DNA from: Eledone cirrhosa
Taxonomy: Eukaryota
Reading direction: 5' to 3'
NCBI GenBank assembly: GCA_964016885.1
Contig: OZ024756.1
Location: forward strand, 27,962,001-28,026,000
Length of the DNA: 64,000 nt
Numbering within the stretch: the first letter of the stretch is position 1; each line of letters starts with the position of its first letter. The notes below the pieces were generated by a model, which saw nothing but the letters and a program-made list of their open reading frames with translations, was not told the DNA's origin and ran no database searches. Below, piece after piece: positions 30,790-55,529 of this stretch. Position numbers and translations under genes: made by a program.

Positions 30790-33700
30790 ATGGATTTTCT
30801 ACAATTGTCTAGAAATATTTCACAACGTTTTACTATTTCCTCTCTCATAGCTTTCGGAATATTTCTCGTTCTCGCCATAACAATTCTCAATCAAGATTCA
30901 AGAATAAGAAAAATGGAGCAGAAAACCGAGGAGGTATGTATATAATTTTTGTAAACTTGTGTCTTCTTTCTATTGCTTTATACACTTGGTGTTTTGTATG
31001 GCGTGTATATATAAAAAGATAGATATATATGTATTTTATATATATATATATATATATATATATATATATATATATATATATATATATATATATATATATA
31101 TATATATGTGTGTGTGTGTGTGTGTGTGTGTGTGTGTGTGTGTGTGTCAGTGTGTGTTTATGAGACTGCGTGTGTGTGTGAATGTATGTATATATATATA
31201 TATATATATATATATATATATACATATATATATATACGTATATATAAATGTATTAATTAATTATATGTGTCAGTGTGTGCTCGAGTGTGTGTGTGTGTCT
31301 GTGTATGATGTGCGCCTGTTTGTGAATGTTTGCCATATATGTACATATACTCATATACATGAACTCGCGTACACGAAATATATATGCATATATAGATACT
31401 CATACACATATATATATTAATATTTATGTATAATATATAAAATACATCCATATATATATATACACACATACACACACATATATATATATATATATATATA
31501 TATATATATATATATATATAAACATATACATATATATATACCCAGATTAAGATAGGCCTAATTTCCCTACAACTGGTTATAAGTCAATAGGGACGTAACA
31601 TTGGTTACTCTTTATACAATTCTTTCTTTCACTGTACTTCGTACATTTTATATTTTGTACGTTGAAATAATATGTGGTCACCAATATCTTTCATATTATG
31701 TTATATATTTCTTTTATAAATTAGTTAGAATTTAACAGAATGTATTTTAGATGTGGAAATCACGTGGATTTTTTGTGAAATACAATCTATTAGTGAATGC
31801 ATAGTACAGTAAATGATTAGTACTTTTTTATTCGATATCAAAAGGATGAAAAGCAAAGTTGACGTCAGCAAGATTTGAATCCAAAGAGCAGATATATATA
31901 ACGAATAATGCTAAGCATTCTATACGACATTCTAACGTCTCTGTTAATTCGCTGCCTAATCTAATATTAACCAAACAATAACCAGTACTTTGATAGGAAA
32001 GAAAATAATTCACAAAGAAGCAGTTAAAATATACATATATATGTATATATATATATGTGTGCGTGTGCGTGTGTGTATGTATATTTCAACGTATGAAGGT
32101 ATATGTGCATTTGAGTGTTTGTCTCAGTCTCAAAATGTGTTTCTCTCTTTTATGTTTCCAAAGAGAATATTTATACTGAGTATTTATATATATATTATTC
32201 GTTATTTTTTAACAGAACCATTTTCTTTCCAAGAAATCTCTCGATGATAAGCCTGGTGACATATATAGTAAGACCTAAATTTTTATCATATTTTCAAAAA
32301 GATTTAGAAACTTTGTCACAAAATTAAATTAAATACAAAAAATATATCACATATTGTCATATATAATATCTTCAAATATTTATCTTCGTCTGCTTACATG
32401 TTATTTTCAAATCTTATCAATATTTTTTATTTATCATTAATGTTTCAATTTATATATTTAATAATTTACTATGTACTCTCCTAACTTCTGTTATATTTTC
32501 TCAATTTCCAACTAATATTTTATTCTACCATTATATCATTTACAATTTCTTAATATTTAACTAAGCACAATTTTTGCATCATATTTACTGTTCATTTCTG
32601 TTGAACTATGTTATGTTTTAAATTTTCAGAATCCGGTCTCGGATCACTGTATACCCGGTGGGGTAGAACAATCTGTCCTCCTTCATCAGATCTTGTATAT
32701 GATGGTTAGTATATTATGTTGTTCTCTCTCTCTCTCTCTCTCTCTCTCTCTCTCTCTCTCTCTCTCTCTCTCTCTCTCTCTCTCTCTCTCTCTCTCTCTC
32801 TCTCTCTCTTTCACTCTCTTTATCTCTAATTCTCATCTCATTATTTCTCGTCCTCAAATGTGTCGTAAATGTTGTCTAATGTGATTCCATGGTAAGGATG
32901 AGATCTCAAAAGACCATGGTTTGTAGATATTAACTAAAGAAACTACTAAGAGTATACAGAAAGATTAGTATCCACAAATTAATGGGGACAATTTCATTGA
33001 CAAAAAACTCAAAATTATGATTAAAATGACTTTTGAGTATAAAATAATATTAACGGTTACATAGACCAATATCGCATACTTATACCATGAAAGACTTTAT
33101 TTTCAGACAATGTACTATATATAGAGTTGATATGTACTACCTGATTGTCACTTATTGCAGGTATATAAACTATTAGTAGAATATTAAATACACACATGAT
33201 TCAGAGTATTTGGTTGGACATGAAATACGCAAGATTTGACTTCTTTTGATATAGTAAAAAACTAAACATATCATAATATATATGTATACTTATATTGGAT
33301 ATTATTCACCTAAAGATATTATTTCATCTCAAAAGTCAATGTATAATAATCCACATATTTAATATTTCTCATTAACTTTTCTATGATAAAACTTGAGTTT
33401 TTAATAATTTCATGTAATTATATTTTTATCAATGTTTGAGATAATTTATTATAAATTATATCCTTATTTTATATTTTATTTGCTTCATATTTTCTTATCA
33501 ATTCTAGGTGTTGTTGGTGGACAACACTTTGAGAACACTGGTGGTGGTAGTAACCTCTTATGTCTACCTAATGATCCTATTTGGGCCAACTTTACTACGG
33601 ATCTTGAAGGAGCAGCTACCATATATGGGAGTGAATATGAGGTATCGGCTTACTCTGTTAATAAGTTATTTTCATTTGCTAACTCTAAAACTCTTCATAA

Positions 33701-34007
33701 TCACAATGTCCCATGTGCTGTCTGTTTGACACGACAACCAGCAGTAGTCATGATGTTACCAGCTCGGACACGCTGTTACCCTGGTTGGACAACTGAGTAC
33801 TCTGGATATTTGATGACTGAGCACGATGGACATAAGGGTAGACATGAATATATCTGTGTGGACCATGCACCCGAAGCAGATCCAGCAGGCTACAGAGATG
33901 AAAATGGCGCTTTATTGTATTTTGTTCAAGGTATCTGTGGTTCATTACCATGTCCACCTTATGTAAATGGTCAAGAATTAAGCTGTGTTGTGTGCAGTAA
34001 GTATTAA
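30790..34007 (+). CDS. Type II membrane protein with short-chain collagen C4-like (spongin-related NC1) C-terminal domain, copy 1, ~252 aa
   Basis: Exons 30790-30933, 32216-32255, 32630-32704 and 33508-34007, all GT-AG, phases 0/1/1, 759 nt open. Family motifs [47 protein letters not shown] and LPCPPY. Exon 2 is the least certain. Confidence 0.85.
31820..31960 (-). mobile_element. Old diverged SINE in intron 1 (also in copies 2 and 3)
   Basis: AAAAGGATGAAAAGCAAAGTTGAC...GATTTGAATCC is the reverse complement of the Nin-like core and B box. Confidence 0.7.
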
Positions 34008-52403: not shown

Positions 52404-55400
52404 ATGGATTTTCTACAATTGTCTAGAAATATTTCACAACGTTTTACTATTTCCTCTCTCATAGCTTTCGGAATATTTCTCGTTCTCGCCATAACAATTC
52501 TCAATCAAGATTCAAGAATAAGAAAAATGGAGCAGAAAACCGAGGAGGTATGTATATAAATTTTTGTAAACTTGTGTCTTCTTTCTATTGCTTTATACAC
52601 TTGGTGTTTTGTATAACGTGTATATATAAAAAGATAGATATATATATATTTTATATATATATATATATATATATATATATATATATATATATATATATAT
52701 ATATATATATATATATATGTGTGTGTGTGTGTGTGTGTGTGTGTGTCAGTATGTGTTTATGAGACTGCGTGTGTGTGTGAATGTATGTGTATATATATAT
52801 ATATATATATATATATATATATATACATATATATAAATGTATTAATTAATTATATGTGTCAGTGTGTGCTCGAGTGTGTGTGTGTGTCTGTGTATGATGT
52901 GCGCCTGTTTGTGAATGTTTGCCATATATGTACATATACTCATATACATGAACTCGCGTACACGAAATATATATGCATATATAGATACTCATACACATAT
53001 ATATATTAATATTTATGTATAATATATAAAATACATCCATATATATATATATACACACATATATATATATATATATATATATATATATATATATATATAT
53101 ATATATATATATATATATATATATATATAAACATATACATATATATATACCCAGATTAAGATAGGCCTAATTTCCCTACAAGGGGTTATAAGTCAATAGG
53201 GACGTAACATTGGTTACTCATTATACAATTCTCTCTTTCACTGTACTCCGTACATTTTATATTTTGTACGTTGAAGTAATATGTTGTCACCAATATCTTT
53301 CATATTATGTTATATATTTCTTTTATAAATTAGTTAGAATTTAACAGAATGTATTTTAGATGTGGAAATCACGTGGATTTTTTGTGAAATACAATCTATT
53401 AGTGAATGCATAGTACAGCAAATGATTAGTACTTTTTTATTCGATATCAAAAGGATGAAAAGCAAAGTTGACGTCAGCAAGATTTGAATCCAAAGAGCAG
53501 ATATATATAACGAATTATGCTAAGCATTCTATACGACATTCTAACGTCTCTGTTAATTCGCTGCCTAATCTAATATTAACCAAACAATAACCAGTACTTT
53601 GATAGGAAAGAAAATAATTCACAAAGAAGCAGTTAAAATATACATATATATGTATATATATATATGTGTGTGTGTGCGTGTGTGTATGTATATTTCAACG
53701 TATGAAGGTATATGTGCATTTGAGTGTTTGTCTCAGTCTCAAAATGTGTTTCTCTCTTTTATGTTTCCAAAGAGAATATTTATACTGAGTATTTATATCT
53801 ATATTATTCGTTATTTTTTAACAGAACCATTTTCTCTCCAAGAAATCTCTCGATGATAAGCCTGGTGACATATATAGTAAGACCTAAATTTTTATCATAT
53901 TTTCAAAAAGATTTAGAAACTTTGTCACAAAATTAAATTAAATACAAAAAATAAATCACATATTGTCTCATATAATATCTTCAAATATTTAACTTCGTCT
54001 CCTTACATGTTATTTTCAAATCTTATCAATATTTTTTATTTATCATTAATGTTTCAATTTATATATATAATAATTTACTATGTACTCTCCTAACTTCTGT
54101 TATATTTTCTCAATTTCCAACTAATATTTTATTCTACCATTATATCATTTACAATTTCTTAATATTTAACTAAGCACAATTTTTGCATCATATTTACTGT
54201 TCATTTCTGTTGAACTATGTTATGATTTCATTTTTCAGAATCCGGTCTCGGATCACTGTATACCCGGTGGGGTAGAACAATCTGTCCTCCTTCATCAGAT
54301 CTTGTATATGATGGTTAGTATATTATGTTGTTCTCTCTCTCTCTATCTCCAATTCTCATCTCATTATTTCTCGTCCTCAAATGTGTCGTAAACGTTGTCT
54401 AATGTGATTCCATGGTAAGGATGAGATCTCAAAAGACCATGGTTTGTAGATATTAACTAAAGAAACTACTAAGAGTATACAGAATGATTAGTATCCACAA
54501 ATTAATGGGGACAATTTCATTGACAAAATCTCAAAATTATGATTAAAATGACCATTGAGTATAAAATAATATTAACGGTTACATAGACCAATATCTCATA
54601 CTTATACCATGAAAGACTTTATTTTCAGACAATGTACTATATATAGTGTTGATATGTACTATCTGATTGTCACTTATTGCAGGTATATAAACTATTAGTA
54701 GAATATTAAATACATACATGATTCAGAGTATTTGGTTGGACATGAAACACGCAAGATTTGACTTCTTTTGATATAGTAAAAAACTAAACATATCATAATA
54801 TGTATGTATACTTATATTGGATATTATTCACCTAAAGATATTATTTTATCTCAAAAGCCAATGTATAATAATCCACATATTTAATATTTCTCATTAACTT
54901 TTCTATGATAAAACTTGAGTTTTTAATAATTTCATGTAATTATATTTTTATCAATGTTTGAGATAATTTATTATAAATTATATCCTTATTTTATATTTTA
55001 TTTGTTTCATATTTTCTTATCAATTCTAGGTGTTGTTGGTGGACAACACTTTGACAACACTGGTGGTGGTAGTAACCTCTTATGTCTACCTAACGATCCT
55101 ATTTGGGCCAACTTTACTACGGATCTTGAAGTAGCAGCTACCATATATGGGAGCGAATATCAGATATCGAGTTACCCTGTTAATAAGTTATTTTCATTTG
55201 CTAACTCTAAAACTCTTCATGATCACAATGTCCCATGTGCTGTCTGTTTGACACGACAACCAGCAGTAGTCATGATGTTACCAGCTCGGACACGCTGTTA
55301 CCCTGGTTGGACAACTGAATACTCTGGATATTTGATGACTTCACACAATGGACATAAGGGTAGACATGAATATGTCTGTGTGGACCATGCACCCGAAGCT

Positions 55401-55529
55401 GATCCAGCAGGCTACAGAAATGAAGATGGCGCTTTATTGTATTTTGTTCAAGGTATCTGTGGGTCATTACCATGTCCACCTTATGTAAATGGTCAAGAAT
55501 TAAGCTGCGTTGTTTGCAGTAAATATTAA
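52404..55529 (+). CDS. Short-chain collagen C4-like type II membrane protein, copy 3
   Basis: Exons 52404-52547, 53825-53864, 54239-54313 and 55030-55529. Open frame with splice sites intact. Confidence 0.85.

Follow-up and report, generated by a model that had tools for sequence, protein, structure and literature searches.

A 64,000-nucleotide stretch of Eledone cirrhosa DNA (assembly GCA_964016885.1, contig OZ024756.1, positions 27,962,001 to 28,026,000 of the forward strand), here called the window, contains three head-to-tail units of 10-11.6 kb, each with one four-exon gene for a protein with a predicted NC1 domain. All positions below are counted within the window, which is AT-rich and dense in microsatellites. 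The explanation that fits the observations best, and that appears somewhat probable, is a young three-copy array of collagen-less NC1 genes in which a tract common to two copies arose by recombination and in which loops encoded by the last exon form a selected, variable recognition surface.

The array occupies 23409..55997 on the forward strand, its left end masked by a gap of 200 N (23209-23408). The coding sequence of copy 1 lies at 30790..34007 (+), with exons at 30790-30933, 32216-32267, 32630-32704 and 33508-34007 and with GT/AG sites. Copy 2 lies at 40842..44227 (+; exons 40842-40985, 42271-42322, 42685-42759 and 43728-44227) and copy 3 at 52404..55529 (+; exons 52404-52547, 53825-53876, 54239-54313 and 55030-55529). 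In the public run X2, a contig connects 53876 to 54239 and 54312/3 to 55029/30 with GT..AG ends, which indicates that exons 2, 3 and 4 of copy 3 are spliced together and that exon 2 is 52 nt long. The end of exon 2 in copy 1 was taken from this joint, and with an exon 2 of 52 nt the spliced frame is open in all three copies and encodes 256 amino acids. Among the public runs searched, no run with matching contigs is recorded as RNA. At about residues 14-33 the protein is hydrophobic (mean hydropathy 2.5); a short polar stalk follows, and then a domain of 190 residues that contains ten cysteines. No Gly-X-Y domain was found in the three spliced window proteins or in the 33 top homologues. Judged by their sequence, the three copies are octopod 'short-chain collagen C4-like' genes, with a spongin-type NC1 behind a hydrophobic leader and without collagen repeats.

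Upstream of the array there is a lone copy of exon 1 at 7532-7675 (+), within a homologous segment at 7234..7742. It is identical at 46 of 48 residues, has an intact frame and donor and is accompanied by about 300 bp of the upstream sequence; exons 2-4 were not found downstream of it before the 200-N gap. It is possibly a truncated duplicate or an alternative first exon. In the 3' flank of copy 3 only, there is an insertion of about 100 bp (~55680-55777), into which the X2 contig extends from exon 4. The insertion is matched by tens of thousands of contigs in four of four runs and is a very high-copy short repeat, which we take to be like a short interspersed element (SINE).

The amino acid differences between the copies are all found in exon 4, and exons 1-3 are protein-identical. 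Copies 1 and 2 differ by 12 amino acids and five silent codons (four in exon 4 and one in exon 2), copies 2 and 3 by 8 amino acids and seven silent codons, and copies 1 and 3 by 12 amino acids and nine silent codons. An earlier reading of the letters of the window (the sequence-only reading) had counted 12 and about 4 for the first pair and 8 and about 7 for the second; the recount agrees. Its claim that the amino acid changes are clustered in the last exon while exons 1-3 are unchanged is likewise upheld, with a clustering p of about 0.001. The variable residues number 15, of which 12 are at most two codons from another (p=0.001; p=0.01 for at most three codons and p=0.035 for at most five), and a single window of 16 codons contains seven of them (p=0.005). 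The nine silent-only sites of exon 4 gave no clustering (p=0.09-0.75). The motif patches that had been listed do cluster, apart from three variable residues that are isolated or outside them. Multi-nucleotide codon swaps, also claimed earlier, are present but few: two between copies 1 and 2 and one between copies 2 and 3, the latter consisting of two single changes on different copies.

Five variable loops can be delimited, given here for the forward strand of copy 1 (add 10220 for copy 2 and 21522 for copy 3). Loop A (33528..33533) comprises residues 98-99 of 256 and follows strand 43-53 in the model of P0001, a homologue 84% identical to the window copies. Loop B and the start of the next strand (33609..33626) include residues 125, 126 and 130, loop C (33639..33656) residues 135, 136, 138 and 140, loop D (33819..33827) residues 195 and 197, and loop E (33897..33905) residues 221 and 223. 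Loops D and E are the internal-repeat equivalents of loops A and B, respectively. Residue 130 of copy 2 (43844-43846) is a serine, while the position is aromatic in 28 of 28 other octopod proteins and makes an inter-subunit contact in the trimer model.

For counts of divergence along the units, microsatellites and columns next to gaps were masked, and two stretches were excluded: a non-homologous block in the unit of copy 1 (about 28885-29435) and a misaligned spot of 9 bases. From the start of the unit through exon 3, 5 of 5119 unmasked sites (0.1%) distinguish copies 2 and 3. Beyond it they differ at 17/677 sites in intron 3 (2.5%), 16/500 in exon 4 (3.2%) and 13/303 in the 3' flank (4.3%). 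The rise from 0.1% to 3% (p=1.5e-19) coincides with a microsatellite in intron 3 rather than with the exon border. It is bracketed by the last copy-1-specific site ahead of exon 3 and the first copy-3-specific site beyond the (TC)n. This (TC)n microsatellite, at 42780..43047 in copy 2, forms the right edge of the tract common to copies 2 and 3; its counterparts are at 32723-32827 in copy 1 and, in a short form, at ~54332-54350 in copy 3. In copy 2 it is chimeric, with the 5' end like copy 3 and the 3' end like copy 1. Gene copy 2 has the same composition, its 5' part resembling copy 3 and its 3' non-coding part being nearer to copy 1 (16/980 differences, against 30/980 from copy 3). The left edge of the tract is an (AC)n(AT)n microsatellite at 34585..34756, where about 1.5 kb found before copy 3 (44755-46294) is missing. 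The near-identical tract of unit 2 is about 8 kb long (34695..42780, +) and matches 46294-54334 of unit 3, with a 70 bp indel, five substitutions and many repeat-length differences. This common 5' tract is very probably the result of a recent unequal crossover or gene conversion bounded by microsatellites. Over 613 bases in which copies 2 and 3 are identical, a contig of another sample has 4 differences from copy 3, and the event is therefore probably younger than ordinary allelic variation.

The earlier statement that the upstream DNA is almost identical thus applies to copies 2 and 3 and not to copy 1, which is 0.5% different upstream, carries the non-homologous block and differs by 1.4-2.5% in introns 1-2. 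The protein identity of exons 1-3 of copy 1 with the others requires no special cause, since no more than about one change is estimated to be expected with introns this divergent and purifying selection of the usual strength. The sequence-only reading gave no divergence for intron 3 and the 3' flank. With these included, exon 4 is not set apart from its surroundings in copies 2 and 3 (16/500 vs 30/980, p=0.88), and a divergence confined to exon 4 is rejected for this pair, the outcome that the sequence-only reading had set as its own refutation. In the comparisons of copy 1 with copies 2 and 3, exon 4 does exceed the flanks, by about twofold (p=0.017 and 0.029). The contrast between exons 1-3 and exon 4 has two causes, the recombination tract and the hypervariable loops. 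Of the proposed combination of diversifying selection with homogenisation of the remaining unit, the part concerning the loops has some support; the contrast between copies 2 and 3 is set by the edge of the tract. The ligand-binding face and the role in immune or chemical recognition that were proposed with it are putative.

The mean column entropy in 28 other octopod proteins is 1.74 bits at the 15 variable residues and 0.58 bits at the other 150 (p=4e-6). Classes of 45, 30 and 16 hypervariable codons were defined solely from the other octopod proteins. The ratio of non-synonymous to synonymous change (dN/dS, omega) among the window copies is 1.6-1.7 for the 45 codons (p=0.10-0.13), 1.9-2.0 for the 30 (p=0.06-0.07) and 2.5 for the 16 (p=0.03); outside the hypervariable codons it is 0.15-0.36. 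First and second positions of these codons are variable at 12/90, 10/60 and 6/32 sites, where 3.7, 2.5 and 1.5 are expected at the rate of the flanking non-coding DNA. This is three to four times that rate (p=5e-4, 3e-4 and 4e-3, respectively), while four-fold sites agree with it (4 vs 2.5 expected, p=0.23). Estimates above 1, as had been anticipated for the patches, are obtained at the hypervariable codons, with borderline significance (1.6-2.5, p 0.03-0.13), and not for the exon as a whole (about 0.55); whole-exon dN/dS was above 1 in no pair. Taken together, these codon comparisons make positive selection on loops A-E probable.

The same loops vary in other octopods. The homologues found number 277, the best being an Octopus vulgaris protein with 84% identity over exon 4; the Octopus name is short-chain collagen C4-like. 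The domain family comprises 4700 representatives at 50% identity. Pfam searches with exon 4, P0001, P0003 and 108 aligned members gave no domain match except collagen repeats in 17 of the 108, and searches of PDB sequences, single and profile, gave nothing meaningful. Each of three Octopus assemblies has the family clustered on a single contig, and for O. vulgaris 15 or more accessions of the range CAI9737324-46 lie together on one contig; the combination expected of a recognition array, a tandem multi-copy family with localised hypervariable positions, is present. Among the 120 pairs of 16 full-length octopod proteins, which are non-independent and derive from predicted gene models, 14 have N-termini that are at most 8% different. 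These pairs differ at 46-76% of the hypervariable positions and at 7-14% of the remaining ones. The pattern of similar 5' parts and divergent loops recurs in paralogues of O. vulgaris and O. sinensis.

In its loops, copy 3 largely retains the residues of the O. vulgaris/O. sinensis homologue P0001/P0265; most derived residues are found in copies 1 and 2, a distribution that fits diversification after duplication. Contigs from two further samples agree with copy 3 in loops B and C. A protein tree of 35 rows has 5 of 32 inner branches well supported and groups the three copies with two O. bimaculoides proteins. An incompatibility test for loop shuffling (56 unique of 68 rows) gave p=0.07 and 0.01 on raw values and p=0.29 and 0.19 after normalisation. 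The distances of loop D are uncorrelated with the rest (rho 0.02-0.11), a result that saturation could also produce.

A paralogue is listed among the parent proteins of the O. vulgaris ink proteome, according to PMC10142993, which supports secretion; the ink peptide is from an in-silico digest and matches P0019 by eye. The adhesive pedal disc of one anemone has raised expression of family members (PMC6626399), relatives in Nematostella are mostly neuroglandular (PMC12549020), and a table in PMC13093298 only counts the family near TLR loci. The proteins P0121-P0152 have several domain copies per chain, with up to nine matched stretches in 3949 aa; such chains are either truly multi-domain or gene models in which tandem genes were fused. 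Annotation presents the O. sinensis records P0018, P0025 and P0028, together with cluster members, as isoforms (up to X6) of one locus each; they may represent merged tandem copies, or common 5' exons with alternative last exons.

The domain is predicted to have the collagen IV-type NC1 fold. An AlphaFold model was made for P0001 with an alignment of 108 rows and has a pLDDT of 89. All 33 Foldseek matches listed at E<=0.001 are collagen IV NC1 (best 1.1e-6). With VIA, the model aligned to collagen IV NC1 over 147 residues with Z 8.2 and a root-mean-square deviation (rmsd) of 4.3 A; two of 48161 representatives reached Z>=2 and both are NC1. Searches of the ESM Atlas gave clusters of the same name, short-chain collagen C4-like, and one with 11% Pfam C4. 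Internally the domain is a two-fold repeat, with loops A and D, and likewise B and E, at equivalent positions (hhalign probability 84-94%). Most variable sites are located in loops of the model, and nowhere in the domain is the pLDDT lower than in loops C and E (81-87). Folding three copies of P0001 gave a trimer score of 0.92, the best of three controls being 0.00, with a contact agreement of at least 91% and a pLDDT of at least 86. In microbes, 21 of 30 solved pairs and 0 of 23 single chains attained the mark for this score; in eukaryotes the numbers were 17 of 29 and 0 of 30. The tightest trimer contacts are mostly invariant residues. By motif position, loops A, B, D and E presumably correspond, in rough terms, to E40, R76, D148/E149 and N187 of collagen IV. 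PMC4878091 places R76, N187 and D148 of collagen IV at the trimer-trimer interface and E40 beside R76; combined with this mapping, the four loops would be on the face away from the stalk.

The proposed mechanism would be as follows. The leader would direct the protein into the secretory path, to be released or membrane-anchored, and the NC1 domains would trimerise on the conserved core, the distal loops displaying a copy-specific surface on the face by which one collagen IV trimer contacts another. Duplication would supply new copies, exchange at dinucleotide repeats would keep leader and stalk uniform, and selection would fix new loop residues in the new copies. The loops might bind varied foreign surfaces, for example microbial, in secretions; such binding of non-self ligands is putative and proposed only tentatively.

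Several results weigh against a selected recognition surface. Whole-exon pN/pS is 0.89-1.16, 0.49-0.64 and 0.32-0.41 for the three pairs, depending on kappa, and the overall whole-exon omega is 0.53-0.57. Measured against the silent rate of the exon, loop omega above 1 is non-significant at two of the three thresholds, which are uncorrected, and the tests draw on no more than three sequences with about 30 changes. Homogenisation of introns by conversion, if it occurs, could make the non-coding rate an underestimate, and the count is inflated by changes that span several nucleotides. In the eight O. vulgaris/O. sinensis pairs that are less than 2% different outside the loops, the mean loop difference is 0.01, and the loops are therefore not in constant fast turnover. 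The trimer fold was run on P0001 without an alignment and may owe its score to solved NC1 trimers already familiar to the predictor, the predicted interface shows no enrichment of variable sites (8/15 vs 103/165), and the placement on one face relies on motif equivalence with the collagen IV numbering.

Relaxed constraint combined with recombination is the alternative that survives best, although it is rather unlikely. The loops would then be tolerant, near-neutral surface loops and the remaining contrast would come from the recent tract, with no selection for diversity. The whole-exon omega, the loop values not clearly above 1 against the silent rate, the equality of exon 4 and flanks in copies 2 and 3 and the low pLDDT of loops C and E all agree with this. 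Against it, loop codons change at about four times the flanking non-coding rate while four-fold sites are not raised, and paralogues with near-identical leaders and stalks differ at half of their loop positions. In addition, loop residues are kept in O. vulgaris/O. sinensis orthologues and partly in Argonauta, which tolerant loops need not be.

Alternatively, the loops could choose subunit or trimer partners, so that the copies would make up a combinatorial matrix, mucus or adhesion code. Such a self-assembly code is unlikely. In its favour, 8 of the 15 variable residues, position 130 included, contact the neighbouring subunit in the trimer model, four loops would match the collagen IV trimer-trimer interface by the approximate mapping given above (PMC4878091), and family members are up-regulated in the anemone's adhesive disc (PMC6626399). 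The best-predicted trimer contacts are, however, mostly invariant, which suggests one trimer core for all paralogues. Rates above neutral are also generally more typical of external targets.

An assembly artefact, with alleles or haplotypes placed in tandem or with a 5' tract that is a collapsed or mis-polished repeat, is very unlikely. In its favour, the non-coding divergence of 1-3% is within the range of alleles, the array directly adjoins the 200-N gap, unit 2 has three deletions of one base each within 40 bp that resemble long-read errors, and contigs of another sample mix sites of all three copies. Against it, two alleles cannot yield three copies whose junctions differ, the indel, substitutions and repeat lengths listed above set units 2 and 3 apart within the tract, no copy has an exon frameshift, a contig present in two runs of another sample is 8 letters from copy 3 where copy 1 is also 8 letters from it, and the family is equally clustered in each of the three Octopus assemblies.

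The octopus genes can be compared with known systems. Spongin NC1 has ten cysteines, seven shared with collagen IV and three unique, and lacks an HSQ motif, in the account given in PMC5395295. The P0001 domain likewise has ten cysteines, kept in the window copies, and no HSQ, and in both respects agrees with spongin NC1. The collagen domain that defines spongin in that account is lacking, and the genes are therefore classified as related to the spongin short-chain collagens (SSCC) and NC1-only, not as spongin. SSCC-related proteins have the same NC1-type domain, preceded by a Pfam collagen repeat in 17 of the 108 aligned relatives; the octopus genes instead have a hydrophobic leader and a short stalk, and show a large tandem expansion with hypervariable loops. 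Ctenophore stand-alone NC1 genes are, according to PMC5395295, also collagen-less with the NC1 behind a signal sequence, but they keep the collagen IV-type cysteines and the HSQ motif, unlike the spongin-type octopus domain.

Collagen IV NC1 is the sole fold matched; the octopus domain resembles it in its two-fold internal repeat, and a trimer is predicted. The identity is 16-23%, the rmsd 4-5 A over about 150 residues, and there is no Pfam C4 match. Collagen IV has a long interrupted triple helix, whereas the octopus protein of 256 aa has no collagen chain. The collagen IV hexamer is formed by trimer-trimer docking with a chloride switch at R76, D78 and E175, a feature of collagen IV. Its distal face is conserved for this docking, while the presumed octopus equivalents are the most variable positions. 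Bivalve C1q-domain and fibrinogen-related proteins, examples of expanded invertebrate recognition families, resemble the picture proposed here in being secreted trimeric globular heads with tandem expansion and variable surface loops; their fold is unrelated, and ligand binding, putative for the octopus family, has been shown there. In the red/green opsins, divergence peaks at selected sites under gene conversion, as set out in PMC3924837. The likeness is in the homogenised neighbourhood with amino acid differences concentrated at few sites. It differs in that octopus copies 2 and 3 show a step at a microsatellite, and only the pairs with copy 1 show a modest peak, of about twofold (p=0.02-0.03).

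Elsewhere in the window, 61815-64000 is a tandem repeat of ~591 bp units that are 99-100% identical, with a strand switch at ~62830; a recent satellite that has undergone an inversion would explain it, as would an assembly artefact of the fold-back kind. Broken fragments resembling Penelope-type retroelements are found at 2248-3711 (-), 12836-13698 (+) and 16288-16701 (-); 2251-2622 gave a weak GIY-YIG match (E 7e-4) short of the cut-off, and the other four tested gave none. Two inverted repeat pairs, 8942-9612/15007-15677 (671 bp, 99.7%) and 8356-8686/16867-17198 (332 bp, 95%), are nested around 9.6-15 kb. Long imperfect trinucleotide (ACA/CCA) arrays with open mucin-like frames, at 17371-18764 and 21366-22030, are probably non-coding repeats.

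No description of the array, the loops or their evolution was found in the literature searched, a search whose scope did not extend to subscription papers and supplements. The genes are already named in databases, and collagen-less SSCC-related forms may have been described in older work. The family is annotated by default as matrix collagen, and no Pfam model or solved structure was found for it. Octopus innate recognition and secretion chemistry are thinly described. It is conceivable, if doubtful, that the octopod NC1 fold constitutes a diversified recognition system, with a cluster of dozens of collagen-less trimeric proteins whose five distal loops are separated by positive selection and reshuffled among paralogues by conversion, and with mixed trimers widening the repertoire for microbes or other foreign surfaces. 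The three copies are a ready test set, having identical leaders and 8-12 differences, nearly all in the loops. If the loops are unselected, the array would be a clear case of microsatellite-bounded homogenisation mimicking a signal of selection; if they are a selected binding surface, the family would represent a new scaffold for variable recognition.

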